From Thermodesulfobacteriota bacterium (GTDB lineage: Bacteria; Desulfobacterota; Desulfobacteria; Desulfobacterales; C00003060): DNA of 64,000 nt. Shown piece by piece: positions 1,189 to 24,656 of the stretch. A program made the position numbers and the translations under genes. A model generated the notes under the pieces. The model worked only from the letters and a program-made list of their open reading frames with translations. It had not been told where the DNA came from and ran no database searches. The stretch covers positions 1-64,000 of the forward strand of contig JAXHVD010000017.1 of NCBI GenBank assembly GCA_034189385.1. Reading direction: 5' to 3'. The stretch's first letter is position 1, and each line of letters begins with the position of its first letter.

Positions 1189-1248
1189 GAAGTCTGACCA
1201 AAAGTTGTCTTGGGCAAATGACCAATGAATAAAAAGGAGGATGAGCAG

Positions 1249-2781: not shown

Positions 2782-2828
2782 ATGACGCTACCTCTGCCGG
2801 CAGTTAAGAAAGGTACTATCTGAGGGCA

Positions 2829-4490: not shown

Positions 4491-4630
4491 CGGGCTGTTG
4501 AAAAACGTCACGAGCGCGGTCAAGACAAGGCAAAATCCGACGAAAAAGCGCAGTTTATGTGTAATAAATGAGTATTTTGAGGAGGATTTTAACGCCGTAT
4601 TGTCAAGCGCAGTAGTTTTTCAACAGCCTG
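4491..4630. mobile_element. 140-bp MITE with 16-bp TIRs, flanked by CTAG
   Basis: cgggctgttgaaaaac ... gtttttcaacagcctg (15/16 inverted match); CTAG at 4487-4490 and 4631-4634. Confidence 0.8.
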
Positions 4631-4896
4631 CTAGAGACGATTTCATTTCTTCCCCCCGCTCTCGGTGTCCTGTCTCAGAAGTTCTTTTCAAAAAAGGACT
4701 GTTGCCATCAAGCTATTTTCCGGGCCCCGTGAGCATTTCTGGTGCATGACACCAGCCGCAGAATCATGAGAGGGATAGTTGGTCAATTGAGCGGCACACA
4801 AATGTGGGAAAGAAGGTCATTTTCAAACAAAAATGTAACTTCGGTACGGTCCGCGGCAAAGACTCTTTGGACAACCTTTTGTCTTTATGGTAGATA

Positions 4897-5039
4897 TTAA
4901 ACCAAATAAGCGAGCGCATTCCCCGTAGATTCCTGCGGGGTTAGGGAGCGTATAGTTAAGCAAACAACAACCTTACGGTGAACATTCCCCGTGGGTTCTG
5001 CCCGTTGGCAGTGCTTCGCAGCCCACGGGGAGGGTTCAA
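4897..5039. repeat. Dispersed hairpin repeat family B (long form)
   Basis: taagcgagcgcattccc + GC-rich hairpins + ttcaa end; relatives at 33485, 41576 and 45402. Confidence 0.7.
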
Positions 5040-5160
5040 TTGGCACGGTGTTTGCCAACTACGATGGAACGAGCCCTTTGCGATCATCAAGGGAAAGGGC
5101 CACAATGCGTTGTCACCAGGTCCATTGTTTCTTAGCAACCCTGTTGGAAAAGAGAGAAAG

Positions 5161-6291: not shown

Positions 6292-7889
6292 GTGTGAAGG
6301 ATCTGCCCTGGCAGATTCACTGGGACAAAGACAAGTGCACCCTTTGCGGGCGTTGCACGGCTGTCTGTCCGGTCCATGCCATTGAACTGGGCGTTTTCCG
6401 CAAACGTCTGGTGCAGACTTCTGTCAACCTCAAGGAGGCGCCCTCGAACGTCCATGAGGTCTTTCATGGTATTCGGCAGAAGACGGACCCCGCCTATGCC
6501 TGTGTAGGATGCGCCATGTGTTCTCTGGTCTGTCCAAACGATTGCATCATGCCCTACAGAAGTGATGAGGCAGACAAGCTCAGATATCATGTCAACCGGG
6601 GCGGGCAGCCGCGCCGTCGTGGAGGACGAAGAAACGTTCCAGGCGGCATCCTTGATCAGATTAAATTCATCCGCATCTCCATGTTGACCGATCCCGCACT
6701 GGACGCGGGGCGCCACGAATTTGAACTCCGTACTCTCTTGGGACGGATCCTCCCTCCGGAAGAGAACCTGCGACTGGTCCGGGAGGAGGGCTGGATCCCG
6801 CCTATTCGAGAGATATACCCCTTGATGATTGGAGCCATGTCCTTTGGGGCCCTTTCGCCGACCATGTGGGAGGGGCTGCAAATGGGCGTGGCCTATCTAA
6901 ATGAAGAACTGGGCATGCCGGTTTGTATGTGTACGGGTGAAGGCGGCTGCCCCCCGCGGCTTCTCCGATCACGATTCTTGAAATATGTCATTTTGCAGAT
7001 CGCAAGCGGCTATTTTGGATGGGACGAGATCATCCGTGCCATACCCGAGATGAAGGAGGACCCCTGTGCCATTGAAATCAAATACGGCCAGGGGGCCAAG
7101 CCCGGTGACGGTGGATTACTCATGTGGCACAAGGTCAATAAGCTCATTGCCACTGTCCGCGGGGTGCCGACGGGCATTAACCTGCCCAGTCCGCCCACCC
7201 ATCAGACCAAGTATTCCATAGAGGAATCGGTGGCCAAGATGATCCAGTCCATGTATATGGCCTGGGGCTTTCGGGTGCCCGTCTATCCCAAGATATCAGC
7301 CACGACCACAGCCCTGGCGGTGCTCAACAACCTGACCCGGAACCCCTATGCGGCCGCCCTGGCTATTGACGGGGAAGACGGCGGCACGGGGGCGGCTTAC
7401 AATGTTTCCATGGATCACATGGGACATCCCATAGCGAGCAACCTTCGCGACTGCTATCTGAATCTGGCCAAACTGGGCATGCAGAACGAGATCCCTCTGT
7501 TTGCCGGAGGCGGCGTGGGTAAAAGCGGCAATCTGGCCGCCAACGCAGCAGCCCTCATCATGTTGGGGGCAAGCGGCGTCCAGATCGGTAAGTATATCAT
7601 GCAGGCGGCAGCCGGTTGCCTTGGCTCGGAATCTGATAGGTGCAATATCTGCAACATTGGACTTTGTCCAAAAGGAATTACCTCACAGGACCCCAGGCTG
7701 TACAGGCGCCTGGATCCAGAGCAGGTGGCTGAGCGGGTAGTAGATGTTTTTCTTGCCTTTGATATTGAGCTCAAGAAGATCATGGCGCCCCTGGGTCGTT
7801 CCACCTCCCTTCCCATCGGCATGTCTGACGCCATTGGCATTAGTGATCGAAGCGCTGCAGATCGCCTTGAGATCAAGTATGTGGTGTGA
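6255..7889 (+). CDS. Glutamate synthase FMN-binding subunit with N-terminal 2x[4Fe-4S] ferredoxin (GltB2-like)
   Basis: Two CxxCxxCxxxCP motifs; MSFGALS, TGEGG, QIASG, EIKYGQGAKPGDGG, CxxxxxCPxGITSQ. Confidence 0.92.
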   Translation: MSSNGRIAPSTLSVKDLPWQIHWDKDKCTLCGRCTAVCPVHAIELGVFRKRLVQTSVNLKEAPSNVHEVFHGIRQKTDPAYACVGCAMCSLVCPNDCIMPYRSDEADKLRYHVNRGGQPRRRGGRRNVPGGILDQIKFIRISMLTDPALDAGRHEFELRTLLGRILPPEENLRLVREEGWIPPIREIYPLMIGAMSFGALSPTMWEGLQMGVAYLNEELGMPVCMCTGEGGCPPRLLRSRFLKYVILQIASGYFGWDEIIRAIPEMKEDPCAIEIKYGQGAKPGDGGLLMWHKVNKLIATVRGVPTGINLPSPPTHQTKYSIEESVAKMIQSMYMAWGFRVPVYPKISATTTALAVLNNLTRNPYAAALAIDGEDGGTGAAYNVSMDHMGHPIASNLRDCYLNLAKLGMQNEIPLFAGGGVGKSGNLAANAAALIMLGASGVQIGKYIMQAAAGCLGSESDRCNICNIGLCPKGITSQDPRLYRRLDPEQVAERVVDVFLAFDIELKKIMAPLGRSTSLPIGMSDAIGISDRSAADRLEIKYVV

Positions 7890-7948
7890 AGGATGAGTCG
7901 GTTCTGCCTACTAGGTTTTTGAAGCGTTACAAGGATTGCGGACGTCAC

Positions 7949-10279
7949 ATGGAAAGACACCAACCATATTGGATACCGGGCATGGAAGAGGGGCGCCGTT
8001 TGGAATCCCGTGTCTTAGAAGAGCATATCCAGGAGGCCGTGGGGGCAGGACGTCGGTTCTTGAAAGTAAAGGCCCACGGCCAACATGGCATTGGAGGTCG
8101 GTTATGGCGGGCAGCCGGTGAAACCGTGCGTATAGAAGTACATGGGACTTGTGGTCAGCGCGTTGGTTCCATGGGGTTTCCCAATACGTGCATTGAAATC
8201 ATGGGGCCGGCATCTGACGATGTGGGGTGGCTCAATGCCGGTGCGGAGATCGTCGTTCACGGCCATGGGAGCAATGGGGTTGGCAATGCCATGGCCCAGG
8301 GAAAGATCTATGTGGCTGGGAACGTGGGCGCCCGCGCCATGACTATGACCAAGCACAATCCGCGTTTTGATCCCCCCGAACTCTGGGTCCTGGGATCTGT
8401 GGGCGATTACTTTGCTGAATTCATGGCAGGGGGGATTGCCGTTGTCTGCGGTCACCAAGCCCAAGATCCATCCAATGTGCTGGGTTACCGTCCCTGCGTG
8501 GGCATGGTGGGGGGCAAGGTCTTCTTTCGGGGTCCTCATAAGGGATTCAGTGGAGTTGACGCAAAGCTAGTGCCCATTGAGGATAAGGACTGGCAGTGGC
8601 TGGAAGAACACCTGAAGGTCTTTTTGGAAAAAACCCATTCCGGGCAGCTCCTGGGCGAGATATCTGATCGGGCTCAGTGGCAGTTGCTCGTGGCCAGGAG
8701 TCCCTTGGAGCGAGGAGGCCGCAGGAGACGCTCCATGGGTGCCTTTTGCCGCGAAGTCTGGGACAATGAGTTGGGGACCGGCGGATTGATCGGAGATGTG
8801 ACCGATCTTGACCGGAGCCCTATTCCTGTCATCACAAGTGGCATCCTTCGCCGTTATGTACCTGTGTGGGAGAACCGGAAGTACGTCTCTCCTTGCGAGG
8901 CTACCTGTCCCACAGGGATACCGGTCCAGGAGCGGTGGCGTCTCATTCGTGAGGGTAGGGTCGATGAAGCGGTGGACATGGCCCTGGCCTATACCCCTTT
9001 TCCTGCCACTGTGTGCGGATACCTGTGCCCTAACCTGTGTATGCAAGGCTGCTCTCGGCACACGGCCAACATGGTCCCCGTGAACATGAAGACCTTGGGC
9101 CGGGCCAGCATTGATGCAAAGATGCCTGAATTACCGCCCCTGACAGGCAAAAGGATTGCAGTGGTGGGAGGGGGCCCCGCAGGTATCTCAGTGGCCTGGC
9201 AACTGCGGAGGCAAGGCCATGAGGCCGTGATCTTTGATATGGAAGAGACCCTGGGTGGCAAGATGGCATCTGCTATACCCAAGAGTCGCATCCCGGAAGA
9301 GGTTGTGAGCGCCGAGTTGGAGCGGGTGAAAAAGGTCCTACCCCACGTCCATCTTCAGCAGCGCCTTACCCGAGAAGACTTCGAGCAGTTGAAAGTGGAT
9401 TATGATTTTGTTGTCATTGCTGTTGGGGCCCAGAAGCCACGACTTCTCGACGTGCCGGGCAAGGAGAGGATGATCGCCGCTATTGACTTCTTGCGGCGCA
9501 GCAGACAAGACGGCGCCCAGGTCGGAAAGCGGCTGGTGATCATCGGTGCAGGTAACGTGGGCTGTGATGTAGCCACTGAGGCCCATCGAATGGGGGCTGA
9601 GGAGATCACGCTCATACATTACAGAAGGCCACCGGCTTCTGGTGAAGAGAAGGAGGCGGCGGAGGCGATCGGGGCGACATTCCGCTGGCCTTGCGTGACC
9701 AAGGCCATCACAGAACAGGGTGTAGAGCTTGCTACGGGAGAAGTGATTGCAGCAGAAACGGTTGTTGCCGCCACGGGCCATGAGCCAGATGTGGGTTTTC
9801 TCCCGGAGACCGTTGCCCTGGAGCGGGGCTTTGTTCAAGCAAACGCCTTCTTTCAGACGACAGACCCTCAGGTCTTTGCCATCGGCGACGTGGTGAAATT
9901 GGGTTTTCTCACCGATGCTATTGGTGCTGGCAGGAAGGCGGCCGGGGCCATCACTGATATTCTGGCAGGTAAACGGCCTCGGGGCGACATGGGCCAGATG
10001 GTAGATTATGATCGCATCAGGCTGGAGTATTTCGACCCCAGGTTCATGGAGTTTGACGACATACACCAATGTGCCGAAAACTGCTCTTCATGCGGGACCT
10101 GTCGGGACTGCGGGATTTGTATCGCCATATGTCCCCAGGGGGCCATCTCCCGAAAAGGAAATGGCGGCGGGGACTTTGAGATGGTCGTGGACCCGGAAAG
10201 ATGTATCGGTTGCGGGTTCTGCGCTGGTGCTTGCCCTTGCGGCATCTGGAGCCTTGTGGAAAACGAACCGATGGGGTAG
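7949..10279 (+). CDS. GXGXG (GltB3) domain fused to GltD-like FAD/NAD(P)H oxidoreductase and C-terminal ferredoxin
   Basis: GXGXG beta-helix repeats (AEFMAGG), PCEATCP, GGGPAG, GAGNVG, FAIGD, two C-terminal 4Fe-4S motifs; alternative start 7886. Confidence 0.88.
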   Translation: MERHQPYWIPGMEEGRRLESRVLEEHIQEAVGAGRRFLKVKAHGQHGIGGRLWRAAGETVRIEVHGTCGQRVGSMGFPNTCIEIMGPASDDVGWLNAGAEIVVHGHGSNGVGNAMAQGKIYVAGNVGARAMTMTKHNPRFDPPELWVLGSVGDYFAEFMAGGIAVVCGHQAQDPSNVLGYRPCVGMVGGKVFFRGPHKGFSGVDAKLVPIEDKDWQWLEEHLKVFLEKTHSGQLLGEISDRAQWQLLVARSPLERGGRRRRSMGAFCREVWDNELGTGGLIGDVTDLDRSPIPVITSGILRRYVPVWENRKYVSPCEATCPTGIPVQERWRLIREGRVDEAVDMALAYTPFPATVCGYLCPNLCMQGCSRHTANMVPVNMKTLGRASIDAKMPELPPLTGKRIAVVGGGPAGISVAWQLRRQGHEAVIFDMEETLGGKMASAIPKSRIPEEVVSAELERVKKVLPHVHLQQRLTREDFEQLKVDYDFVVIAVGAQKPRLLDVPGKERMIAAIDFLRRSRQDGAQVGKRLVIIGAGNVGCDVATEAHRMGAEEITLIHYRRPPASGEEKEAAEAIGATFRWPCVTKAITEQGVELATGEVIAAETVVAATGHEPDVGFLPETVALERGFVQANAFFQTTDPQVFAIGDVVKLGFLTDAIGAGRKAAGAITDILAGKRPRGDMGQMVDYDRIRLEYFDPRFMEFDDIHQCAENCSSCGTCRDCGICIAICPQGAISRKGNGGGDFEMVVDPERCIGCGFCAGACPCGIWSLVENEPMG

Positions 10280-11974: not shown

Positions 11975-12628
11975 TCACGATTCCAAAGAGGTGATTCCTT
12001 TTCGGATGGCGTATTTCGTAAGCTCGGCAGTGGTGTGAATATCCAGCTTTCGCTTGATGTTTCGGCGATGGCACTCTACGGTCCTAATGCTCATGCCGAG
12101 GCAAGAAGCTATTTGCGTGGAGGTCTTCCCCTCGGCCACAAGCTGGAGGATATCCCGTTCCCTGCCTTTTGGGACAGGGGAAGACAACGGGTCTCCCCTT
12201 GACACCCGCCCTACATATTCCTCGACCAGAGTCTTTGATATGGCAGGGCTGATACAGGTCTCGCCAGCCACGACGGCGCGGACGGCGAGCGTCAACTCCT
12301 GGGCAGTACAATCTGTGGTCAGGTAGCCCGACGCGCCCGCCGTAAGCACCCCCCCTACGAACTTCCTATCCCTGTGCATGGACAAGATCAGGACCTTGAC
12401 AAGAGGACATAGGGTCTTAATGCGGCGGGTCGCGTCGATGCCGTCTCGGCTGTCTGTGGCGATATCCATGACCACGACGTCCGGGGTGAGTTCCTGGGCC
12501 AGTTTCACCGCGCTGTCCCCGTTAGCTACTTCAGCCACAATCTCCATCTGTTTTTCCTTCTCAAGCAAGGAACGGACAGCCTCGCGGAAAATCTTGTGGT
12601 CGTCTGACAGCAGAATCTTTATGCTCAT
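11975..12628 (-). CDS. NarL/FixJ-family response regulator (REC + LuxR HTH)
   Basis: SDDH, VVMDI, ILSMH, GKTSTQIA...SIRTVECHRRNIKRKL. Confidence 0.92.
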   Translation of the reverse strand: MSIKILLSDDHKIFREAVRSLLEKEKQMEIVAEVANGDSAVKLAQELTPDVVVMDIATDSRDGIDATRRIKTLCPLVKVLILSMHRDRKFVGGVLTAGASGYLTTDCTAQELTLAVRAVVAGETCISPAISKTLVEEYVGRVSRGDPLSSPVPKGRERDILQLVAEGKTSTQIASCLGMSIRTVECHRRNIKRKLDIHTTAELTKYAIRKGITSLES

Positions 12629-12648: not shown

Positions 12649-13383
12649 TTATCCGTGGCCCGTGAGGGGTGCCGCTAGGGTGACGCGAGTGCCGTGGCCT
12701 GGCCTGGAGTCCACCTTAAGGCAGCCCCCCAATGGCTGAAATTGCTCTTTGATCCCAAAAAGGCCATAACCGTCGGTCTTGCCCGCAGCGGAGATTGTCT
12801 CTTTTGGATCAAATCCCCTACCGTCATCTTCCACCTCAATGCAAATCTGATCCCCATCTCTTGTCATCGATACAGTGGCACTGCCAGCCCGAGCATGCTG
12901 GACTGTGTTTTTCAACAACTCTCGCACTGCCCGATACAACAGGACACGAAGGTCATCCCTTAAAGGCTTTGGCTTGCCGTCATCGCTAACACGGATTGCT
13001 ATTCCGTGCCGCTCCTCGGTCTGTTGGGTGAGCGACTCCACAGCCGGCACAAATCCCAACTCATAGAGAACGGGAGAGGCAATCTCAGAAATCAGCTGGC
13101 GGGTCTCCTGGATCGTCTCATCAATCAGTGCGATGACGTCGCAAGTCTTCTTGGCAGCCTCGCCAGAGGATGTGGCGGATTTGACGATTCCCAGATTTAT
13201 CTTGGCAATAGCCAAGTTCTGGATGATATGGTCATGGACTTCCACGGCAATGCGGTGGCGTTCCCGCTCTTCGGCCAAGGCCAATAACGACGTCAGGGAA
13301 CGCAGTTTTTGATAGATCAGGCGATCGTCCTCAGCCCCAATTTGGTCGGCGGTTCTCTGTTGAAGTCGTCTATGTGGTCTCAT
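12649..13383 (-). CDS. HisKA_3 sensor histidine kinase, no obvious input domain
   Basis: EERERHRIAVEVHD H-box, ELLKNTVQHA, EDDGRGFD, GYGLFGI, PGHGT. Confidence 0.9.
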   Translation of the reverse strand: MRPHRRLQQRTADQIGAEDDRLIYQKLRSLTSLLALAEERERHRIAVEVHDHIIQNLAIAKINLGIVKSATSSGEAAKKTCDVIALIDETIQETRQLISEIASPVLYELGFVPAVESLTQQTEERHGIAIRVSDDGKPKPLRDDLRVLLYRAVRELLKNTVQHARAGSATVSMTRDGDQICIEVEDDGRGFDPKETISAAGKTDGYGLFGIKEQFQPLGGCLKVDSRPGHGTRVTLAAPLTGHG

Positions 13384-13570
13384 GCCTTTTCCCGCGCCTT
13401 TCTCTGTCTGCCCCCCCGTGCTGCTCGGGGCCAGTGCTGGGGGTTACCTGTGCTCGGTCAAGCCGTGCCGGCAAAAGCGACCTTCCTAACAGTCTCACTT
13501 TATTTCGTCCCAGAAAACCTGGTCCTTTGGGCCAGGTCAGAGTAAACTGGCTTTGCCAAATATCGTTAAT

Positions 13571-13698
13571 AGTGCCTAAAGTTTTAAGTGCACTAACGTG
13601 CGCTAAAGTTAAGGAATTCTGCCAATTATATAAAAGAATGGAGCGAAGCGACTTCCACAAGTTTAGGCACTTTAGCTCACTTCAGGCACTTTGAACTT
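13571..13698. repeat. Short palindromic repeat patch (agtgcctaaagt / tttaggcact units)
   Basis: agtgcctaaagtt...gctaaagtt on the left, inverted tttaggcactttagctcacttcaggcacttt on the right. Confidence 0.5.
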
Positions 13699-13709
13699 GT
13701 CCAGTATTC

Positions 13710-13732
13710 AGAAAACAGCCCCTTTCAGGGGC
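13710..13732 (-). terminator. Rho-independent terminator (minus strand)
   Basis: Minus strand gcccct-gaa-aggggc followed by tgttttct. Confidence 0.6.
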
Positions 13733-13939
13733 AAATCAACGCCTGGTCCTTCGGGCCAGGATTCTTTACGTCTGAGGACAGGCCTTTAGGTGGCCGCCCT
13801 GTCTGGTGAACTGATTGTCTGTCCAATCTGCTCTCCCGTTGTGGCAATTCTCAGGTAGATGGTCCTCCAGTGCCCATGCCCCACTGCTTCAGGTCCCCAC
13901 GTGGGAGCGATGAGGGGGCAGGGCATAAGGCACAAAGTA
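13710..13939 (-). ncRNA. Candidate sigma54-dependent small RNA (~230 nt)
   Basis: Lies between a consensus sigma54 promoter (13950-13965) and a terminator; the only sizeable ORF (46 aa, 13786-13926) lacks an RBS. Confidence 0.45.
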
Positions 13940-13949
13940 TATTTAAAAA

Positions 13950-13965
13950 CGCAACAGCTATGCCA
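13950..13965 (-). promoter_or_regulatory. sigma54 (-24/-12) promoter
   Basis: Minus strand TGGCAT-AGCTG-TTGCG. Confidence 0.8.
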
Positions 13966-14041: not shown

Positions 14042-14070
14042 TTCTACTGTAACAAAATGTTACAGTAGAA
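14042..14070. promoter_or_regulatory. Perfect palindrome, candidate enhancer (UAS) or autoregulatory operator
   Basis: ttctactgtaaca-aaa-tgttacagtagaa, 13-bp arms, centred about 117 nt upstream of the predicted sigma54 start; related half-sites at 13989 and 14092. Confidence 0.7.
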
Positions 14071-14267: not shown

Positions 14268-15632
14268 ATGGGCTCTGCAAAGATCCTTCTGGTAGACGAT
14301 GATGAGGCCTTCCTAGAGCTTTTCGCTTTCATGGCGTCGGCCCCCCCCCTGGATATAGAGATCGTTCCTTGCCCATCTGCCCAAAAGGCCTTGGACCTCT
14401 TAAAGGAGGGGCCCATAGACCTGGTTGTTTCAGATGTGCAGATGCCCGGCATGACAGGGATCGAGCTTTTTCGCCAGGCCCAAGACCTCTACCCTGAGAT
14501 CCCTGTCATCCTGATGACCGCCTTCGGCTCCACGCAGGAGGCCATAGAAGCGGTCAAGGAAGGGGCCTTCCACTACTTTGAAAAGCCCATAAACGACAAG
14601 TTGGACCTCTTTTGGACGACCATTCGGGAGGCCTTGGCCAAGAGGGAGATGGCCAACCGACTGGCATCGCTTCAGAGAGAAAAGTCTCTTTGCGCGGAGA
14701 TGCCCTCGGACATCGTCGGTCAGTCTGAGGCCATCAAGGAGGTGGTCAGGTCGTTGACGGAAGTATCAAAGCTCCCGGTCACCGTCCTTATCCAGGGCGA
14801 AACAGGCACCGGCAAAGAGCTTGTGGCCAGGGCCATTCATCGGCTGAGCGAGAGGAAGGCGAAGCCCTTTTTTGCCGTGAGCTGCAACGAGTTTGCCGCA
14901 GGCATCTTGGAAAGTGAGTTGTTCGGTCACGAAAGGGGGGCCTTTACGGGCGCCATCGGTCGAAAGCGGGGTCTTTTTGAACTGGCCCACAAGGGAACCC
15001 TTTTTTTGGATGAGATTGGAGAGGCCCCCCCTTTTTTTCAGTCCAAGCTTTTGAGGGTGGTGGAAAGCAAGACCTTTCTGCGCGTCGGGGGAACCTTTCC
15101 CATCCACTCGGACTTTCGCTTGCTCACGGCTACCAACCGGGACCTGGAGAAAGAGGTGGCCCAAGGGGGCTTTCGCCAGGATCTTTTTCACCGGCTGAAT
15201 CTTTACACCATTCAAATGCCGCCCTTACGGAACAGAAAAGAAGACATCCCGCTCATTGCAGAATACTATCTAAAGAGATTTGCCCTGGCCTATCGCCGTC
15301 CCATCTCAAGTATCTCCACGAACGCCTTGCTCTATCTCAGGGATTACGATTGGCCGGGCAATGTCCGTGAGCTCATCAACGTGGTGGAACGGGCGGTGAT
15401 CACCTGCAAAGAAGAGATGATCACCACCAAAGACTTCCCCTTTGAGGCGGGCGAATACCGAGAGACTTCTGATCTGAACCTAAGGGATGTTGAAAAACTC
15501 TGTATCAGGATGGCCCTCACGCGGACGGGGAACAACAAGTCCCAGGCCGCTGAGCTTCTGGGCATCACCCGCAAAACCCTTATTGAGAAGGCAAGGAGCT
15601 TTGGATTAGATGAGACGGCAGATCATGGATAG
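14268..15632 (+). CDS. NtrC-family sigma54-dependent response regulator
   Basis: REC (LVDDD, SDVQMP, FEKP), GETGTGKE, GAFTGA, LFLDEI, WPGNVREL, Fis-type HTH. Confidence 0.95.
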   Translation: MGSAKILLVDDDEAFLELFAFMASAPPLDIEIVPCPSAQKALDLLKEGPIDLVVSDVQMPGMTGIELFRQAQDLYPEIPVILMTAFGSTQEAIEAVKEGAFHYFEKPINDKLDLFWTTIREALAKREMANRLASLQREKSLCAEMPSDIVGQSEAIKEVVRSLTEVSKLPVTVLIQGETGTGKELVARAIHRLSERKAKPFFAVSCNEFAAGILESELFGHERGAFTGAIGRKRGLFELAHKGTLFLDEIGEAPPFFQSKLLRVVESKTFLRVGGTFPIHSDFRLLTATNRDLEKEVAQGGFRQDLFHRLNLYTIQMPPLRNRKEDIPLIAEYYLKRFALAYRRPISSISTNALLYLRDYDWPGNVRELINVVERAVITCKEEMITTKDFPFEAGEYRETSDLNLRDVEKLCIRMALTRTGNNKSQAAELLGITRKTLIEKARSFGLDETADHG

Positions 15633-17457
15633 GGTGTGTATTTTTTGTGTGTGCCTGTTGGCCCTTTCTTCTTCTCCTGTTTGGGCCCTGGAAGGCGATG
15701 GGCCCAGCCAGGCCTACCGGCTGGAAGAGGTGGTGGTGACAGCCACCCGTGTGGAAACCCCTGAAGAAGAGGTGGCGGCAAATGTAACGGTCGTCACAAG
15801 CGATGACATCAAAAAGATGCCCGTTTCCAGTGTGGGCGAGGTGCTCCAATACGTGCCCGACACCTATGTGGAGTTTAATGGCGGCCTGGGGAGCCAGGCC
15901 ACGGCCACGATCCAGGGCTCGCAGCTCCACCAGGTGGCCGTCTATCAGGACGGCGTTCCCCTGAACCAGTTGGCCAATCCCCTCACTGACCTTTCCTATG
16001 TCCCTGTGGATATGATCGACCGGATCGAGGTCTATAAAGGGGCGGCTTCCTCTGCCTGGGGGTCTGCCTTGGGCGGCGTGATCAACATCATCACCAAAGA
16101 ACCGGATCCCAAGAAACCCTTTGAAGGCGACTTAAGAAGCTCCTACGGGGAGCATGCCACCTTCAAAAACCGGGCCACCGTCAGTGGCAGCGGGGGCCGT
16201 TTGGGCTGCCTCCTTTCTATGACCCATGAGCAGAGCGACGGTTTCATGACACATTCGGAGTATGACCAGTTGGCGCTCTATGGCAAGATCAACTATGAAC
16301 TGGGTGAGACAAGCCGCCTGAACCTGGTGTACAGCTACGACAGAGGGACCAATAGCGATCCCATGCCATATGAGCCTGACTTCTGGGATGACATCTACCG
16401 CAAACGGATCTATCAACGGCTCCTCTTTGAGACCACCCTTGCCGATGGTCTGGACCTGACCCTTGAGGGCCGGCATCATCGATTCGTGAGCATCATCGAG
16501 GATGTGTATAGCCACTACAGGGAGCTCTATCACGATTACGAGGATGAGCTCTTTGGCGCGAGCGCCCGCGTGAGTCACCACGTCCATGATTGGAACAGGT
16601 TCAATCTCGGATTTGATGGGGATTGGGGCACCTATGATTTTCTCACTCCATTCGTAGATTATGACGCCAGAGAGGAAAACTGGGCCCTCTATGCCAATGA
16701 CACCCTGAGCCTTGGGGATTTCTCTTTGAACGTGGGCGTCCGGTACGATGAGCATAGCGATTTTGGCTCTGAACTCAGCCCGTCCGCCGGGCTGGTTTAT
16801 CGTGTCTTGGGAGAAAAAGCCCTTATCCGAGGCCAGGTTTCCAAGGGCTTTTCAGCCCCTCCTGCCGTGTGGCGGGACATACCTGTCTATGGAAACGAGG
16901 ACCTCGAGCCCGAGGTGGCCATCAACTATCAAGGTGGGGTTGAGGCCAGCCCTTTTCCGTTCCTGAGGCTGGAGTTGAACGTCTTTCGGGCAAATGTGGA
17001 CGATCTCATCCGCTACGACTGGGATGCCGAGAAGTTTGAAAACATCGCAGAGGTGACGCGGGAAGGGATAGAAGGAAGCATCTCTTTAAGCTTTGATATG
17101 GGACTGACCCTCTCCTTTGGCGGCAGCTTCATTGATGTCGTGGACGACGAAACCGATGAAGTGATTAAAGACATCCCAAGACGGCTCTATACCTGCTCGG
17201 CCTCCTATGCCAATGATTGGATGAGCCACTCTGTGGTGGGAAGTTATGTGTATCACAATTCTTCCTACCCTGAGACAAAGGACAAGGTCTTTCTCTTTGA
17301 CTATCTCCTCAAGCTCAAGCTTCCCTCTTCCGATCGATTTGACGAGCTCACCCTCTTTGCGGCCGTGCACAACCTTGGCAACACGAACTACCTCTATCGT
17401 GCGGTCTGGCCCCAACCTGGCCGCTGGTTTGAGGGCGGGATAAGCGTTGCGTTCTAG
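15625..17457 (+). CDS. TonB-dependent outer membrane receptor
   Basis: Signal peptide, EEVVVTATR TonB box, RIEVYKGAASSAWG...GGVINIITK plug, C-terminal Phe; overlaps the regulator stop codon. Confidence 0.93.
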   Translation: MDRVCIFCVCLLALSSSPVWALEGDGPSQAYRLEEVVVTATRVETPEEEVAANVTVVTSDDIKKMPVSSVGEVLQYVPDTYVEFNGGLGSQATATIQGSQLHQVAVYQDGVPLNQLANPLTDLSYVPVDMIDRIEVYKGAASSAWGSALGGVINIITKEPDPKKPFEGDLRSSYGEHATFKNRATVSGSGGRLGCLLSMTHEQSDGFMTHSEYDQLALYGKINYELGETSRLNLVYSYDRGTNSDPMPYEPDFWDDIYRKRIYQRLLFETTLADGLDLTLEGRHHRFVSIIEDVYSHYRELYHDYEDELFGASARVSHHVHDWNRFNLGFDGDWGTYDFLTPFVDYDAREENWALYANDTLSLGDFSLNVGVRYDEHSDFGSELSPSAGLVYRVLGEKALIRGQVSKGFSAPPAVWRDIPVYGNEDLEPEVAINYQGGVEASPFPFLRLELNVFRANVDDLIRYDWDAEKFENIAEVTREGIEGSISLSFDMGLTLSFGGSFIDVVDDETDEVIKDIPRRLYTCSASYANDWMSHSVVGSYVYHNSSYPETKDKVFLFDYLLKLKLPSSDRFDELTLFAAVHNLGNTNYLYRAVWPQPGRWFEGGISVAF

Positions 17458-17489
17458 CATCCCTGTTCAGATAGCCTTTCCCAGTTGAA

Positions 17490-17655
17490 TCCCTCAGGAT
17501 CCATTGCCCGCGGCTTGCCGCGTGTCCGTCATTCCGGCCCACGCCGGAATCCAGAAAACCAGACTGGATGCCGGATCAAGTCCGGCATGACATATGATAC
17601 CCCGCTGCTTGCGGCGGGGTAGTTTATTCCCTCAGGATCCATTGCCCGCGGCTTG
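17490..17655. repeat. REP-like composite: palindromic elements between 28-bp direct repeats
   Basis: tccctcaggatccattgcccgcggcttg at 17490-17517 and 17628-17655; gtcattccggc...ccggcatgac (17528-17591) and ccccgctgcttgcggcgggg hairpin inside. Confidence 0.7.
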
Positions 17656-17724
17656 ACTTCGACGAAGAATGTGACTAAGGCTCGCTCGAATGCAATGAGA
17701 AAGTTGGTTTCTTCAATTTTCGCG

Positions 17725-18909
17725 TTAGTAATACTTCCTGGTCGTTATAACGCCTGCTGATACCATAAGCGCTGAGGCCGTAAAGAACAGGGATTGGGGA
17801 CTCCATATTCTCAGCACCATAGCGCTCCCGAATATGGAACCCAAATAGCAAAGTCCCCTGTAGGTGGATAACACAGAAATGGTCTTCCCTATGCACGCCT
17901 TTGGGCTATATTTCTGGATAAGGCTCTCCAAGAAGACATGCATGAATGTGAATCCGCAGCCAAGCAGAGACATGAGCAGGGCGATCTGGACCAAAGTCCT
18001 TAGTTGAGACAGGGTGGCTATGGCCCCCGCCAGGAGCAGAAAGTTGAAGGAAAGCAGGGTCCGACGTCGGACGGCTGACCCGTATCTGGGCAACAGAAAG
18101 GTAGACACACAGGCACCTGCCTGGAATGCGGACAGCAATAGTCCCCAATCAGCAATATCTTTTCCCAACTGAGTCTTGCAGAGGACAGGCACGCCAAGAT
18201 ACAACATGCCTCCACCTGCAAGGACAAATCCAAAGGTGGCGAAACATGCCTTGAGCTTGGGGTTGCCCCTGAAAGGCTCCATGAAATCAACAACCAACGG
18301 CCGAAGCCCGTGCCTGCGAAACGGGCCATAAACTGATCTTTCGGTCCCTGAGACAGTGTCGGGAAGTCTCCAAACAAGAAAAGCTGAAAGTGTGAACAGA
18401 AGCCCACCGAACCCCAAAGACATTGCCGGGCCGGTCTCCAAGACAATGCAACTGATAAGCAAAGGGCCCAATATGCGGCCGGCCAGAGATACCCTCTCGT
18501 TGACGGCGTTGAAGGGGATGAGTTCGTCTTTGGGTATGAGCACGGGTACAAGGGAAAGGCGCCCTATATAGAAAAACAAAGAACCGATAATGAGAAGAAG
18601 ATAGACAGTAAAGACAAGGTAGCGGGATGATACAAAGACAAGGGCGCCTACCAACAGGCACTTGCCACCGCTTACCAAGAATAGCCATGTCTTTGCCCCA
18701 ACGCGGTCAATCCATAGACCTGCCAGGGGGCTTAAACAGACGGAAGGGGCCTGTTCAATCAGACACATGGCCAGTAGATTTGACAGGCCTTTCTCTCCCT
18801 TGAAGAACAGCAGGTCCAGCAGGGTGAAACCTACAAACTGGTTTCCCAGATCTGACAGAAGGTCGGCCAATATGATTAATGCTTTGGTGGGAATGCCGGG
18901 TCTTTTCAT
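17725..18909 (-). CDS. MFS transporter (drug/peptide exporter-like)
   Basis: About 12 hydrophobic segments, AGLWIDRVG motif A; ATGA overlap with the radical SAM gene. Confidence 0.88.
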   Translation of the reverse strand: MKRPGIPTKALIILADLLSDLGNQFVGFTLLDLLFFKGEKGLSNLLAMCLIEQAPSVCLSPLAGLWIDRVGAKTWLFLVSGGKCLLVGALVFVSSRYLVFTVYLLLIIGSLFFYIGRLSLVPVLIPKDELIPFNAVNERVSLAGRILGPLLISCIVLETGPAMSLGFGGLLFTLSAFLVWRLPDTVSGTERSVYGPFRRHGLRPLVVDFMEPFRGNPKLKACFATFGFVLAGGGMLYLGVPVLCKTQLGKDIADWGLLLSAFQAGACVSTFLLPRYGSAVRRRTLLSFNFLLLAGAIATLSQLRTLVQIALLMSLLGCGFTFMHVFLESLIQKYSPKACIGKTISVLSTYRGLCYLGSIFGSAMVLRIWSPQSLFFTASALMVSAGVITTRKYY

Positions 18910-20222
18910 GCTGCATCTTTAAGGCCCGTGAACGAATGCTCAAGGCATGTGGCTTCGGCCTTCTCTCGGATGTATTCTTCCAGGAGAAGACGATAGGTGT
19001 CATAATGACAGTCGGCCCCGCCAAAATCATTCTGGTTGGTGAGGGCCTGAAGACGGCAGCCACCCATGCAGGTGGGGAGCAGTTCGCACTCTTTTAGGCA
19101 CCTATCTGGCAAGGCTCTCTTGAGAAGCTGGGACTCTGCAACGAAATCAATACCAGTGTTAACATGGCCGTAGGCCATCTCGGAACCTTGAAGGGATGGG
19201 CAGGGAATGATGGAACCGTCCGTGTCAAAGACGAATCGGGACCGAAAGTCGGCCATGCAGGTGTTGAGGGGGGCCTCACTATTTATGGGATAGCCCCGTT
19301 GGCCAGCCTCTCGGTTCAGGTAGAGAAATATGTTGGGATCGCCCATTCCTGAATTATAGAGATTCCTTCTTCTCCTCGGCAGGATTGGAGTGAAGGCGAT
19401 GTTATCAATGCCGATGTTTCTTTCAGCCATATCGTCAAGCATCTCTGGAACCCTCAAATAATCAAGGGCTCCACTGTCATACTGGCACTCCACGCTGATG
19501 GGGACCATGCCAGAAATAGCTTGCAGGTTTTCCATAATCAACTCGTAGGTCTTGCCGTTATGTTTCGAAGGCCTCAGGGCATCATGAACAGGGGCAGGCC
19601 CGGCCAGGCTGACGCGGATGCCGGTGAGCCCTACCTTCTTCATGTCCGAGATGACAGCTGGCCTCACGAGCGTGCCATTAGTCGTTATGACAAAGCCGTA
19701 GTCAATGCCCTTCCCCATGCAGTAAAAGAAACGTCTCGCAACGCTTTCCATGATGATCTTTGAATTAAGCAGCGGTTCACCACCCAGGTAGTCATCCTCC
19801 ACCTTTTGGGGGCCCTTTTCCTCCATGGTCTCAATATAGAACTGATCCATGGCTAAGGCTGTCCCGCTGGACATGTCTTTGGCTTCAGGGTCAAGGATGC
19901 AGTAGCGACATCGGTTGTTACACTTCCGCGTGACCAGAACCTTGGATTTTAGCGTACTGAAATGATGGACGTGTTGTTGTTTCCAGTTTTCAAACACCGT
20001 GGTTTCGTCCACACCGTCTTTCACCAGGAATCCCTGCTCATGAAGCAGATCGGTGGTAGCAGAATCGGCCGGTGCTATTGGATCGCTGAGTGCATAGGCC
20101 CAAGTCTTTTCCAGTATGAGAATAAAGGCTCCTGTCATGGTCTGGTAGAGGGCGACGATCTCCTGCCCTTTGTTCTCAACTGGAACAGCCACAGTGAATC
20201 TGGATTTTTTGAGAGAAAACAT
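18906..20222 (-). CDS. Radical SAM/SPASM-domain peptide maturase
   Basis: CNNRCRYC, LGGEPLL, TTNG, SPASM cysteines (CMAD...PCP...CLKECELLPTCMGGC...DC); AAGGAG before ATG 20222 (ORF track starts at 20279). Confidence 0.9.
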   Translation of the reverse strand: MFSLKKSRFTVAVPVENKGQEIVALYQTMTGAFILILEKTWAYALSDPIAPADSATTDLLHEQGFLVKDGVDETTVFENWKQQHVHHFSTLKSKVLVTRKCNNRCRYCILDPEAKDMSSGTALAMDQFYIETMEEKGPQKVEDDYLGGEPLLNSKIIMESVARRFFYCMGKGIDYGFVITTNGTLVRPAVISDMKKVGLTGIRVSLAGPAPVHDALRPSKHNGKTYELIMENLQAISGMVPISVECQYDSGALDYLRVPEMLDDMAERNIGIDNIAFTPILPRRRRNLYNSGMGDPNIFLYLNREAGQRGYPINSEAPLNTCMADFRSRFVFDTDGSIIPCPSLQGSEMAYGHVNTGIDFVAESQLLKRALPDRCLKECELLPTCMGGCRLQALTNQNDFGGADCHYDTYRLLLEEYIREKAEATCLEHSFTGLKDAA

Positions 20223-20304
20223 GATGTAGTCTCCTTTATTGAGATGTCTTAGGTAAGCGGAGCTGTCCTGCGCAGACAAGTCTCACCTCGTTTCAGGAAT
20301 TACA

Positions 20305-20329
20305 TCCCCCTCCCACGAGGGGAGGGGGA
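20305..20329. terminator. Strong stem-loop between precursor and maturase
   Basis: tccccctccc-acgag-gggaggggga 10-bp stem, no clear U-tract. Confidence 0.5.
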
Positions 20330-20396
20330 ATGCCTGAACTCCTGGGTGTTCAAGGCTGTCTCTCCAAGAATCGCTCAGCTCAAAGTTGTACGTTAG

Positions 20397-20486
20397 CTAG
20401 TTCCGGGCGTTTGGACCAATAGCACAGCAACTCAGCGCTGACTTCTTGACTCTGTATGTCCCCTTCCTAATGACGGTAACTTTCAT
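20397..20486 (-). CDS. Putative RiPP precursor peptide, 29 aa: MKVTVIRKGTYRVKKSALSCCAIGPNARN
   Basis: Hand-translated; AAGGAGGT RBS at 20493-20500; directly upstream of the rSAM/SPASM gene on the same strand; Cys-Cys in the C-terminal half. Confidence 0.85.
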   Translation of the reverse strand: MKVTVIRKGTYRVKKSALSCCAIGPNARN

Positions 20487-21045
20487 CACTCTACCTCCTT
20501 TCTCAAAAGATTTATTGCCATTGCGCGCTTGGCTGGTGACCAATCAACATCACGATGTATGCCATGATTGGCATTTCATCAAAAAAACCCTATTTAGTTG
20601 ATATTGCTTATGCGAATGGCATGAATCAGGTGATGGGCCAGCCTTTCACGGGATCGAAAGTTGGAACTTCGGAAGGTAAGTTCGAAAAGGCGTGCTACAA
20701 GTTCAGACTTGTCGGGATGCGATCGGGCCAAGTGATGGCCTGCAGCTGCCTTTCAGAGAAGGACCCTTAAAGGGCGGGATGCCAGTTCGCAGCACGTTTG
20801 AGGGCGCCGGCCTGACATTATACTATTTTGTGCCAGCAAAGCGATTAACAACGCCTGAAGCGGGTGACTGGACTGAACAAGAATCAACTTCTTTCAGGCG
20901 TTACATTTTCAACGCTCCAGGCTCTGGATCGTTTTACTCACCCGGTTTCAGCAGGCAAAGGCCGTTATCAGCAAGACGATACCCAAGGAGTATTGACGGG
21001 GAACAGAGGATAGCACGAGATGGATTATCTAAACTTGCCCACGAG

Positions 21046-22620
21046 CTAATTCGGATTCAAGGAGACATGTCTCAGGTTGTAGATTCCTTCGTATGTTAGA
21101 GAGAATGGCAGGGTCAGTCTAAACCGTTTAGACATAATATTGATGGCCTTCTTATGGAATAAAAAAGTACCGGGTTGGAGCGAGCTGACTAAGGCGTCTG
21201 TCTGATAAAGGAGCTGCTTCTGTTTTAGCGGGTCCTTTTCATCAATGGCCTCACAGAGAAGATGAGTCACCCCGGGATGGTCGAAACAACCGGCGTCAGA
21301 CCCTTTGTTAAGAGACATACACCATTGATTTCTTAAGTACTCGGGATTACGATAAGCACCCCTAAAATCCGTTATTACAGCCTGAAACGAAGTGTTTGCA
21401 ACGTAGCGCTTTTTAAGCTCTAAGAACGGAAGCGATTCTACTTGCGCGATGATGCCAAGATCATTCAGGCAAAGTCTTATGTATTCAGCCACCTTCTTTT
21501 CGATTTGGCCTTGTTCAAAGACGAGGATAGTGAATTCAAAACGTTTTCCGTCCTTAACAAGATGGCGACCTGCCTCATCATAAGACCAGCCCGCTTCTTT
21601 CAGGAGCTTCAATCCCTGTTGCGGTTCATACCGGATGGGCATGACTTCAGGGTTGTGAAAAGGAGAATCCACACCCATGGGGCCCTCGGCAACAATTCCA
21701 AGGCCTTTAAGGATTTTTTCTACGATGTATTTCCTATCAATGGCAAGGGAGAGAGCCATCCGAGCACTTGTAGCCGAGAAGAGGGGATCCGTTGTATTGT
21801 AAAGGAGGATTGTGTAATGAGGCAGAGGGTAGGTTTCAAAGTAATACCTTTTTTCATACTGATGGGTGATTTCATAGTTTTTTGGAGAGATCTCATGGCC
21901 TACGTCGGTCTTACCTGAAAGGAGTCTTGTCCACGTTTGTTCTTTGTCCGGCTGAAAATGGAAGATAACCCCGTCCAATGCAGGGCGGCCTCGAAAGTAG
22001 TCTTCATTGGCTACAAGGCCCACTTCGCTGCCGCCTTTTCTATATTGAAATCTGAACGGACCAGAGCCAACAGGGTGATTATAATAATCTATCTTACCAT
22101 TGTTCGATTGGTGGACAACCGGCATGTCCCACGTCTTAAAAAGAAAGTCTGGTTCGTCTCTCGTCAGAACCATACTGAGAGCTGTATCCGACAAGAGGGA
22201 AATCTTTTCAACCAAAGATAAGAGAGAAGGATGATGCTTCTTAAGCACCGTCTGAAACGAATACTGCACATCCTTTGAAGTCACAGGTTCTTTGTTGTGG
22301 AATAGAGCATTTTCTCGGAGGTGGATGGTCCAGGTAAGACCCTTTGAATCATAGCTCCACTTGGAGGCGAGATCCGCCTCTATTTTTCCATGGCAGTTCG
22401 GAACAACTAGAAAACCGTATAGTAAAGGGAAGACGTGGTTTGAACCGGAGAATTCAAATCGTGCAGGATCCAAAGAGTCAAAAGGGGCGTTGACATCATA
22501 GTGAAGTATATTCTCGTTTCCAGGTGTTTCCACTGTAGTAAGAACACCTGGTCCTTCGCAGGAGACACAAAGGGTGGCAAGGAGAACGGCAATCACGGCC
22601 CATAGGGGGAATCTGTGCAT
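21046..22620 (-). CDS. OppA/DppA-family (SBP family 5) peptide-binding lipoprotein
   Basis: Lipobox-like LCVSC, SLDP, WTIHLR..FH..PVTSKDVQYSF, PVGSGPF, RMALSLAIDR; no permease or ATPase adjacent; alternative start 22704. Confidence 0.88.
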   Translation of the reverse strand: MHRFPLWAVIAVLLATLCVSCEGPGVLTTVETPGNENILHYDVNAPFDSLDPARFEFSGSNHVFPLLYGFLVVPNCHGKIEADLASKWSYDSKGLTWTIHLRENALFHNKEPVTSKDVQYSFQTVLKKHHPSLLSLVEKISLLSDTALSMVLTRDEPDFLFKTWDMPVVHQSNNGKIDYYNHPVGSGPFRFQYRKGGSEVGLVANEDYFRGRPALDGVIFHFQPDKEQTWTRLLSGKTDVGHEISPKNYEITHQYEKRYYFETYPLPHYTILLYNTTDPLFSATSARMALSLAIDRKYIVEKILKGLGIVAEGPMGVDSPFHNPEVMPIRYEPQQGLKLLKEAGWSYDEAGRHLVKDGKRFEFTILVFEQGQIEKKVAEYIRLCLNDLGIIAQVESLPFLELKKRYVANTSFQAVITDFRGAYRNPEYLRNQWCMSLNKGSDAGCFDHPGVTHLLCEAIDEKDPLKQKQLLYQTDALVSSLQPGTFLFHKKAINIMSKRFRLTLPFSLTYEGIYNLRHVSLNPN

Positions 22621-22913
22621 TGATGACAAGAATACCTCAGAGAGTTTGTATCTGGATTGATTGGCCTTTTTCCCATTATGCACACAGATATCGTTTTTTT
22701 TCAAGACTGAGAGGTGCCTGCTGTTCCGTGTCGGCCTGGTGCGCCACGTTCTCGTCTCGATTGGTCGCTATGAGGCGTTCACGGGGTCAGGGGGTGAGGG
22801 CTTGAGCGGATGGTCGAAGGTGGCGAATAGGGCTTCCCTTTACAAAGGGGAAAAAACCTCCTATGTTGCGGGCCAACATGCCCCTTGACGCTCTTCTTAT
22901 ATAGCGGCCTGTC

Positions 22914-24656
22914 ATGAAAAAGAGGAAAAGACTATTTCACAGGTATCTCTTGTTTGTATTGCCCCTGGTGATCCTGTCGGTAATGATCACAGGGGGCGCC
23001 CTTTCCTGGATCTGCTATCGACACTTCCAAGAGACGATCAACAGCAGTTACAAAAATATCATTAGAGGCTCTGCCGGCGAGATCGGCCTTTTTATGAAAG
23101 ATGCCCAAAAGGGACTGGAAGGGCTAGCCTGGGTGATCGCTGCTACCAAACTGGACCCCTGGCAAAAAGAGATGGCCCTTGCAGCCTTTCATCATACGGC
23201 AGAAGAGTTCATGTTCCTCTCCCTGGTCTCCCCGGAAGGGGAAGATCTCCTGACTAGCGGCTGGCAAGGAAACGACGTGGCCTATGTTCGGTCCGAAATA
23301 TTCCAAGAAGCGCTGCAAGGCGAGAGAGGCATTTCCGATGTGATGGTGGCACAGAGGGACATCCCCTACGTCTATTTGGCCGTTCCCATATTACACCTGG
23401 GCGCAGTCAAGGAGGTCCTATGGGGTCAACTGAATCTGAAGTCCGTATGGGACGTGTTAGAGGGGATCAAGGTGGGCGCCACGGGCCGGGTGTCTATCTT
23501 GGATTTGTCGGGGCGCTTGATCGGAGACGTGGAAATGTCGAGGGTGGTGAAGCCGACTTGGCCTCAACGGCAGGAGATTCTTGAAGCGTTGCAAGACACT
23601 CATGAGCCCCTGGCATGGATGGAAGAGGAAGACCACTCGAGTTTTTATTGCCTTGGCTACCGAATTCCCAATCTAGATTGGATCATTGTCCTGAGGCAAC
23701 GTTGCGCGGAGACCTATGCCTATTTGTACAAGAGCATCCTTTGGGGGGCCCTGATCACAGCGGCCATCTGCCTCGCAGCGGTCCTTGCAGGGTGGAATCG
23801 GGTGGAGCACTTCTTGGCGCCCATCCAGACCCTTCACGGCCAGGTGCAAAGGATAGGTGGGGGTGATCTCGACCAGAGGGTCTCTGTTGACACGGGCGAT
23901 GAGATCGGCGATCTGGCCGAAGCCTTCAATGATATGACCGATTCGCTCAAGAGACTCATTGAGCGGGAAGTGGCCTCGGCCAAGGAGCTGGCCCATGCCA
24001 AGAACCTGGCTGTCCTGGGCTCGACTTCGAGCAAGGTCACCCATGAGGTGGGAAATCTCCTAAACAATGTGGGCCTGACCCTTTCCATTCTTAAGAATGA
24101 AGGACTCAGCCCAGGAGGAGAAAACGCCCTTCACATATTGGAGAAAGACTCGGCCCGCGTGAAAGAGTTCATCGCCAATTTTCTGCAATTTGCGAAAACA
24201 CCGGAGCTGCACCTGGAGAGGAGACCCTTGGAAGGGATACTGCGCGAAGTCCTCTTTCTCTACCAAGGAGGAAGCGAGAAAGGGGCCATCGAACTGGAGC
24301 TGGATTGGCCGCCCGACCTGCCCCCTGTCCTTATGGATCAGGGGCTCATGTACCAGGTCTTTCACAATCTGGTAAAGAACGGCATGGAGGCCATGGGCGA
24401 TTCAGGCAAGATCGAGATCACAGGAAGGGTTGACGGAGAACATCTGGTTGTTGTCTTAAAAGACACGGGGCCGGGCATGGGGCCGGAGGTTCTGGAGCAG
24501 ATCTTTGATCCCTTTTACACCACCAAAGGGAAAAAAGGCACGGGCCTCGGCCTTTCCATCGTGAAGACTATTGTACAGGCCCATCGCGGCACCATCGAAT
24601 GCCAGAGTCAGTTGGGCAGCGGAACGACCTTTATCGTTCGTCTGCCATTGCAGTAG
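22914..24656 (+). CDS. Membrane sensor histidine kinase (Cache-HAMP-HisKA-HATPase)
   Basis: Two TM helices, DEIGDLAEAFNDM HAMP, THEVGN H-box, NLVKNG, DTGPG, FYTTK, GTGLGL. Confidence 0.93.
   Translation: MKKRKRLFHRYLLFVLPLVILSVMITGGALSWICYRHFQETINSSYKNIIRGSAGEIGLFMKDAQKGLEGLAWVIAATKLDPWQKEMALAAFHHTAEEFMFLSLVSPEGEDLLTSGWQGNDVAYVRSEIFQEALQGERGISDVMVAQRDIPYVYLAVPILHLGAVKEVLWGQLNLKSVWDVLEGIKVGATGRVSILDLSGRLIGDVEMSRVVKPTWPQRQEILEALQDTHEPLAWMEEEDHSSFYCLGYRIPNLDWIIVLRQRCAETYAYLYKSILWGALITAAICLAAVLAGWNRVEHFLAPIQTLHGQVQRIGGGDLDQRVSVDTGDEIGDLAEAFNDMTDSLKRLIEREVASAKELAHAKNLAVLGSTSSKVTHEVGNLLNNVGLTLSILKNEGLSPGGENALHILEKDSARVKEFIANFLQFAKTPELHLERRPLEGILREVLFLYQGGSEKGAIELELDWPPDLPPVLMDQGLMYQVFHNLVKNGMEAMGDSGKIEITGRVDGEHLVVVLKDTGPGMGPEVLEQIFDPFYTTKGKKGTGLGLSIVKTIVQAHRGTIECQSQLGSGTTFIVRLPLQ

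Follow-up and report, generated by a model that had tools for sequence, protein, structure and literature searches.

The locus described here raises two questions: whether a very short open reading frame (ORF) situated next to a radical SAM enzyme encodes a genuine RiPP precursor, and, if so, what the modified peptide would be used for. The original prediction for this 64,000-nucleotide stretch of DNA (hereafter, the window) had described a 29-aa precursor with a perfect ribosome-binding site and a 10-bp stem-loop before the maturase, without giving a strand. The ORF lies on the minus strand and has the sequence that had been reported, and both accessory elements are present (Table 1). Its product is composed of a β-strand-type leader and an invariant Gly, followed by Cys-Cys, variable residues, Pro and an xxRN tail.

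Two scans of sequence collections yielded 57 loci, 41 of them at 49-87% identity, and nine genome regions were added. Altogether 51 loci including the window were examined, of which 7 lacked the maturase 5' end or the upstream DNA, leaving 44 that could be assessed. In 43 of these (window included) an ORF encoding Cys-Cys is located within 450 nt upstream of the maturase, and in the remaining one (L009) it lies downstream of the maturase in the inverted orientation; Cys-Cys was required in this count, and an unfiltered list of every short ORF bearing a ribosome-binding site yields identical ORFs. The pattern G-x10-CC-x3/4-P-xxR is matched at all 44 loci of these close maturase relatives. A conserved leader-core peptide is thus a constant companion of the enzyme, which supports the proposal that it is the RiPP precursor for the adjoining RRE-radical SAM-SPASM protein, and the search for a G..CC..GP pattern upstream of maturase homologues, suggested together with that proposal, has given the predicted result.

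Removal of 6 duplicates left 37 distinct precursors, whose alignment has the consensus MKxIVxxKGTYxxRxSGMxCCxxGPxSRN, with the Gly and both Cys residues invariant. The Cys-Cys pair is followed by 8 or 9 residues, among which only Pro (35/37) and Arg (33/37) proved near-invariant when a conserved acceptor was sought; the intervening residues are the most variable, and every one of the 37 distinct loci has a different core. All four Cys-Cys codon pairs are used across the loci, and the changed codons in 40 close, non-independent pairs comprise 195 synonymous versus 126 non-synonymous cases. On this evidence, the 29-codon ORF is a genuine gene. Readthrough of the stop codon as selenocysteine was considered and rejected, as the precursor ends with TAA, TAG or TGA depending on the locus. 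Among 301 genomes belonging to the class, 9 were found to carry the close subfamily, the source genome being one of them, and the titled records of relatives come from Desulfobacteraceae, Syntrophobacteraceae and Deltaproteobacteria.

The 10-bp hairpin of the window is embedded in a longer imperfect stem within a spacer of 171-174 nt (folding z = -3.7 for 171 nt). Its sequence is unlike that of the usual family hairpin, and its spacer is longer (174 nt versus about 70 nt in the family). Nevertheless, a hairpin with z < -2 follows the precursor stop codon in 33 of the 37 distinct loci, so it is the position of this element that is conserved across the family, and not its sequence. In line with the original prediction, such a hairpin might help to maintain an excess of precursor mRNA. 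Two identities of the hairpin were rejected, namely a canonical terminator (the U-tract is absent and a terminator scan called none on the minus strand) and a repeated palindromic element (it occurs in a single copy in this genome).

Table 1. Genes and predicted regulatory elements of the cassette in the window
Feature	Position	Strand	Remarks
NarL/LuxR-type response regulator, predicted output gene	11975..12628	-	
HisKA_3 kinase without recognised sensor domain, predicted output gene	12649..13383	-	
Divergent sigma-54-type promoter, predicted output promoter	13950..13965	-	100 nt from T-box
T-box palindrome TGTAAC-N5-GTTACA, perfect	14048..14064	.	Only exact match in assembly; predicted response-regulator site
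NtrC-type sigma-54 response regulator	14268..15632	+	Receiver, AAA+, Fis HTH
TonB-dependent outer-membrane receptor	15610..17457	+	
MFS transporter, predicted exporter	17725..18909	-	Stop/start overlap with maturase
Radical SAM maturase	18906..20222	-	N-terminal RRE-like domain, CxxxCxxC, seven-Cys SPASM domain
Hairpin, precursor-maturase spacer	20305..20329	-	10-bp stem, 5-nt loop, no U-tract
Precursor peptide gene, 29 aa	20397..20486	-	ATG 20486 to TAG 20397
Precursor ribosome-binding site, AAGGAGGT	20493..20500	-	
Sigma-54-type (-24/-12) promoter of precursor operon, predicted	20549..20564	-	
IHF-like site between enhancer and promoter	20591..20603	-	Judged by eye, no control
Three A-boxes, predicted enhancer of second activator	20658..20710	-	AAGTT-NN-AACTT type; about -147, -125 and -106 from promoter
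Family-5 solute-binding protein, lipoprotein-like signal	21046..22620	-	Closest solved relative AppA
C-terminal stub of receiver-less sigma-54 activator	22624..22737	-	About 384 aa in relatives
Sensor kinase	22914..24656	+	dCache, HAMP, HisKA, HATPase

The maturase is best described by the NCBIfam model TIGR04280 (geopeptide maturase), which it matches over the full length with 206 bits, below the 400-bit cut-off. The corresponding precursor model, TIGR04229 (cut-off 30 bits), matches nothing in the genome and none of the 37 subfamily precursors; it does match 12 of 33 precursors from distant loci, and the subfamily precursor profile aligns with the geopeptide precursor profile (probability 81%, E 1e-5). 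As in the geopeptide system, which is annotated as a hypothetical equivalog, a short peptide of the same plan (hydrophobic strand, Gly, spacer, CC) is encoded directly upstream of a full-length homologous maturase, and the neighbours include a TonB receptor, an orphan binding protein and a HAMP kinase. On the other hand, the maturases of the two groups share only about 24-29% identity, and the subfamily is distinguished by a basic leader with near-fixed spacing, a PxxRN-type tail, a binding protein of family 5 (not PF04392), an MFS exporter and near-universal sigma-54 control with two enhancer types. Because TIGR04280 is the best model for the maturase and the profiles of the two precursor groups can be aligned, we classify the system, from these comparisons, as a sister subfamily of the geopeptide system (TIGR04229/TIGR04280) and, going by the models, not as a member of it. 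The suggestion that the peptide might belong to a new family therefore stands insofar as no existing model covers the subfamily, and fails insofar as the maturase has a named best model and the precursor profiles are related. We found no paper on the system under the geopeptide name or the TIGR accessions, and supplementary tables of genome-mining studies may list these precursors.

At the periphery of the locus set, far more distant maturases (L047, L054, L058, L059 and L061; 21-25% identity) are preceded by Cys-rich precursors of other kinds, with endings like CVVHLCGC or CxCxC. Several genomes (L143, i.e. G166:C1, as well as G255, G338 and G021) each encode two geopeptide maturases that score over the cut-off, and in L143 the set of receptor, maturase and kinase occurs twice in tandem.

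The structure model of the maturase is confident (pLDDT 90), the cysteines of its SPASM domain (C322, 341, 375, 379, 385, 389 and 405) are invariant, and its top matches in both sequence and fold are structures of CteB (5WGG, 5WHY), at 16-17% identity. According to passages of PMC6231123, enzymes whose Aux I site is open, such as CteB, have the seven-cysteine SPASM pattern. Since a seven-cysteine SPASM domain would be compatible with it, as would the closest structures, formation of a Cys thioether by the maturase is plausible by analogy. The SCIFF ranthipeptide synthases, including CteB (thermocellin), share with it the RRE, the radical SAM core and the SPASM domain with seven invariant cysteines, and parts of PMC8326336 list SCIFF peptides as quorum-sensing molecules of clostridia. 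However, SCIFF precursors have six cysteines, whereas here there are two adjacent ones and no conserved acceptor side chain, and the host is Gram-negative, with a linked chain of outer-membrane and periplasmic sensing proteins. The chemistry of the maturase on the Cys-Cys motif is undescribed in the literature searched.

The interpretation given with the original prediction is partly supported. What it missed is that the precursor and the maturase belong to a conserved export, uptake and sensing cassette under sigma-54 control. The recurring members are the sigma-54 regulator, the TonB receptor, the family-5 binding protein, the precursor, the maturase, the MFS protein and the dCache-HAMP kinase; their order is shuffled between loci, but the membership is kept. 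In the window, the block from the binding protein through the precursor and the maturase to the MFS gene is inverted with respect to the usual order, and L010 exhibits the same convergence of receptor and MFS genes. The gap at one inversion boundary (17457-17725) contains a direct repeat of about 25 nt flanking a palindromic, REP-like sequence. For counts of the cassette members, only genome loci extending at least 7 kb to either side were used, i.e. 5 close relatives and 26 distant loci. Among the former, the TonB receptor, the binding protein and the MFS protein are present in 5/5 and the kinase in 4/5; among the latter, the receptor is present in 22, the binding protein in 23 (20 of them PF04392) and the kinase in 23, and the MFS protein in none. 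The binding protein has thus mostly been swapped for another family in the distant loci. No permease or ATPase gene accompanies the family-5 binding-protein gene in the window, and an Opp-type permease was found near just 1 of 31 loci, on the opposite strand, by a test consisting of one permease query and a Pfam scan of 80 selected ORFs. The source genome has a TonB gene outside the cassette, and the ORFs scanned in the cassette loci include no conserved peptidase. Upstream in the window (1225-10279) there are genes for glutamine synthetase, an NAD synthetase-like and a glutamate synthase-like protein, as judged from the translations.

Genes for synthesis, export, a receptor kinase and a regulator are therefore linked, as in peptide quorum-sensing systems. 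Starting from what is directly established, i.e. the gene and its conservation, the existence of the cassette, the motifs of promoters and enhancers with their distribution (described below) and a truncated second activator in this assembly, we estimate a probability of about 60% that a geopeptide-like, thioether-crosslinked RiPP acts as a strain-variable cell-to-cell signal. The leader strand would bind the RRE of the maturase, a Cys residue would bind the open auxiliary cluster, and the cysteines would become linked into the short variable tail by one or two thioethers, more likely to backbone α-carbons because no acceptor side chain is conserved. An unlinked protease would remove the leader, the MFS protein would export the peptide and the TonB receptor would re-import it through the outer membrane, whereupon the peptide-loaded binding protein would activate the dCache kinase. 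Precedents exist for the individual sensing steps. Passages of PMC8050422 report that genes for binding proteins that stimulate kinases adjoin signalling genes and that a family-5 protein controls the dCache-like kinase ChiS, and parts of PMC10570129 indicate that an outer-membrane receptor, a periplasmic protein and a two-component system can together sense external nutrients. The proposed relay thus resembles CBP-ChiS and LuxP-LuxQ, where a binding protein of family 5 or another family controls a dCache-like kinase, and PahS-PahP-PahKR, where an outer-membrane receptor feeds a periplasmic protein and a two-component system; their ligands, however, are chitin sugars, AI-2 and hydrocarbons, respectively, while here the ligand is predicted to be a peptide from the same cassette.

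The control regions provide a further view of how such a circuit could be wired. In 34 of the 37 loci the precursor is preceded, at a distance of 72-124 nt, by a sigma-54-type site (GG-N-TG), compared with a mean of 0.56 and a maximum of 4 in shuffled sequences; this motif and the two enhancer motifs described below were defined after inspection of the data, and the promoter of the window was also scored leave-one-out. Among 35 candidates from distant geopeptide loci, only 11 have a similar site in front of them. Between enhancer and promoter there is an IHF-like site. The enhancers are of two types. In the clade that includes the window, A-boxes are found at about -150, -129 and -108, with the strict pattern in 14 of 34 loci (0.005 in shuffles); when the genome is scored with a matrix that leaves out the A-box site of the window, this site still ranks first, and no A-box regulon above background extends beyond the cassette in this genome. 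In the other clade, 7 of 9 loci have a T-box matching at least 9 of 12 positions at -91 to -101 relative to the precursor promoter, compared with at most 8 of 12 in the other 28 loci; in G421 and G569, sites with an exact match lie on this promoter. The split between A-boxes and T-boxes essentially represents one clade boundary rather than many independent events. L135 (11201-14462), where the family-5 binding-protein gene is duplicated in tandem, has neither enhancer type and no sigma-54 site.

In both clades, on the other hand, a T-box lies upstream of the response regulator gene, accompanied at a distance of 95-101 nt by a sigma-54 site that faces away from this gene. This arrangement was found in the window and in L123, L125, L127, L228 and L229, and is absent from L124; in L120 the T-box is present and the sequence ends before the region of the divergent promoter. 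The genes behind the divergent promoters encode receiver-domain proteins or response regulators, a hybrid kinase together with an HDOD protein, a regulator of the CsgD/VpsT-like type (below cut-off) and, in the window, a HisKA_3 kinase with a NarL-type regulator, and none among those loci is a metal-handling gene. In the window, about 570 nt with short repeated words (13383-13950) separate the divergent site from the HisKA_3 kinase gene. As the recognition helix of the response regulator is nearly identical in both clades, we infer that it is this protein that binds the T-box. Once phosphorylated, it would turn on the divergent operon of further regulators, and in the T-box clade it would probably drive both this output operon and its own signal, the T-box on the precursor promoter closing an autoinduction loop with positive feedback. 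In the clade of the window no direct feedback site of the regulator is visible on the precursor promoter, and production would run through a second, receiver-less activator and the A-boxes. The source genome contains four pairs of a T-box and a promoter: one in the cassette, two inside ORFs, and a plausible intergenic one on C56. The last (G000:C56:79717, minus strand), with 99 nt between the T-box-like and sigma-54 sites, precedes the gene of a 716-aa receiver-kinase (hybrid kinase) and may be a second target. A T-box-like and a sigma-54 site also precede genes for an HD-domain protein, a kinase and a regulator in a distant locus, just downstream of the cassette kinase (L159:11083, plus strand).

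The direction of the divergent promoter bears on a different use of the same genes, namely metallophore or cofactor scavenging, in which the Cys-Cys peptide would chelate metal outside the cell and return via the TonB receptor, and the kinase would sense the loaded form and boost the system. The precursor, exporter and TonB receptor do parallel methanobactin operons, for which passages of PMC3621798 describe a TonB receptor, an exporter and a proposed product-triggered regulation around a Cys-containing RiPP, and one may add that the Cys-Cys pair is invariant, that the best models for the receptor are BtuB-like (below cut-off) and that the relatives of the binding protein include nickel-binding proteins. 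Yet the best solved match of the binding protein is the peptide binder AppA and not NikA, a dedicated inner-membrane importer is absent, and the T-box promoter faces regulators and not the receptor operon. The only modifying enzyme in the cassette is a radical SAM protein in place of MbnBC, control is exerted by a kinase and a sigma-54 regulator instead of the FecIR type, and its predicted output consists of regulators rather than uptake genes. The tail is poor in potential ligands (His, Asp, Glu, Met and Cys together account for 16 of 306 residues). Cysteines converted to thioethers are poor metal ligands, which would hold for both cysteines here if both are so converted. No Fur-like box scoring more than 14/19 was found upstream of 43 precursors, or more than 12/19 upstream of 6 regulators, in a search without a control that used a Fur consensus and was directed at Fur as the sole metal regulator. 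We therefore regard a role in metal acquisition as unlikely, though it is the strongest of the competing readings.

If the peptide is a signal, its production in the clade of the window would depend on the second activator. In the A-box loci a sigma-54 ATPase of about 384 aa, devoid of a receiver, is encoded between the receptor and the binding protein. Its C-terminal domain is found in 5/5 A-box genomes (as a stub in the window), in 0/5 T-box genomes and in 2 of 401 genomes in a sample of the phylum; in the one new carrier, G294, the precursor is preceded by an A-box and a sigma-54 site, so that the prediction held out of sample. This domain of about 110 aa (L030:2216-2545, minus strand), found only in genomes with the cassette, has no Pfam family and falls only into unnamed Atlas clusters, its structure model is of low confidence (pLDDT 47), and it is a candidate for a new DNA-binding domain. 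Only a stub of the activator is left in the window, L021 and L023, and in L014, L019 and L120 its reading frame is lost at a run of 8-9 T just ahead of Walker B; the in-frame copies examined have runs of 1-7 T at that position. The frameshifted spans (L120:3900-4010, L014:130-250 and L019:100-200) could reflect phase variation, transcriptional slippage or assembly error. No second intact copy was found in the source assembly, which is 90% complete, and a weak match on C23 was rejected because it is antisense to another gene. With only a stub of the activator and no other copy in this assembly, the precursor copy of the window may be silent, with the sensing side intact. Against silence, the A-boxes, the promoter and the maturase are free of decay (the end branch of the maturase is 0.078, compared with 0.082 for its sister), and the truncation may itself be an assembly error. 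The odds that the source genome listens while producing little appear about even.

Repeated damage to a production activator, combined with hypervariable cores, would also fit an arms race. In such a case the peptide would be a narrow-spectrum antibacterial, with the MFS protein serving for export or immunity, the receptor being its entry gate in kin, and the sensor triggering production or defence upon contact with the peptide; many sactipeptides are antimicrobial, according to passages of PMC6231123. We consider this highly improbable, since the producer retains its own import receptor in the cassette, no conserved gene of an immunity type is present, and the predicted outputs are regulators.

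In 10 of 11 independent pairs, divergence is more rapid in the binding protein than in the maturase, and between the window and L010 its identity is 63%, compared with 87% for the maturase, 83% for the MFS protein and 92% for the receptor. In partial Mantel tests the core is linked to the binding protein (r 0.37) and to the sensor domain of the kinase (0.32), and not to the MFS protein or the kinase core; the leader is tied to the maturase and the MFS protein. In the 11 independent pairs, however, divergence of the binding protein tracks the leader (rho 0.86) no less closely than it does the core (0.76), so that exchange of a linked block explains the covariation equally well, and the substitutions in the binding protein are spread along its whole length. 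Support for co-evolution of receptor and core is therefore weak. That linkage can by itself account for the covariation of binding protein and precursor leaves room for a system in which the peptide is not the ligand at all: the receptor, binding protein and kinase would sense an unrelated external molecule, as parts of PMC10570129 describe for external nutrients and a similar set of proteins, and would control a peptide with another, possibly intracellular, role. The absence of the MFS protein from all 26 distant geopeptide loci agrees with this. Yet the association persists where genes have been reordered or another family of binding proteins has come in, and between close relatives with different cores, such as the window and L010, divergence of the binding protein is unusually rapid. 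On balance, a sensor for an unrelated ligand appears quite improbable.

If the peptide is indeed a signal, the cassette can be compared with the peptide quorum sensing of Gram-positive bacteria. Peptide quorum sensing is textbook knowledge for Gram-positive bacteria, and the agr system comprises a precursor, processing and export, a kinase, a regulator, feedback and variable cores. Parts of PMC8326336 and PMC10114670 list quorum roles for SCIFF and streptide. The cassette shares with agr and, according to these parts, SHP/Rgg-streptide a precursor, processing or export, a kinase, a regulator and variable cores, together with a feedback that is predicted for the T-box clade. Here, however, an import step through the outer membrane is needed and sigma-54 is used. 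What is new is the wiring of sigma-54, T-box and A-box around the precursor. We tentatively envisage a self-contained quorum-sensing circuit, in which a crosslinked pheromone, TonB-dependent import and a sigma-54 relay would lead to lifestyle regulators, such as the CsgD/VpsT-like one of a single genome, and in which the clade with the poly-T-prone activator would give rise to signal-negative listeners. The cis-elements make these ideas easier to test, as they comprise two named DNA boxes with two candidate activators, next to a 29-residue substrate and 37 natural core variants. If true, sulfate reducers and syntrophs with two membranes would possess a genetically complete peptide loop, and thereby a new channel of communication in the communities of sediments and digesters.
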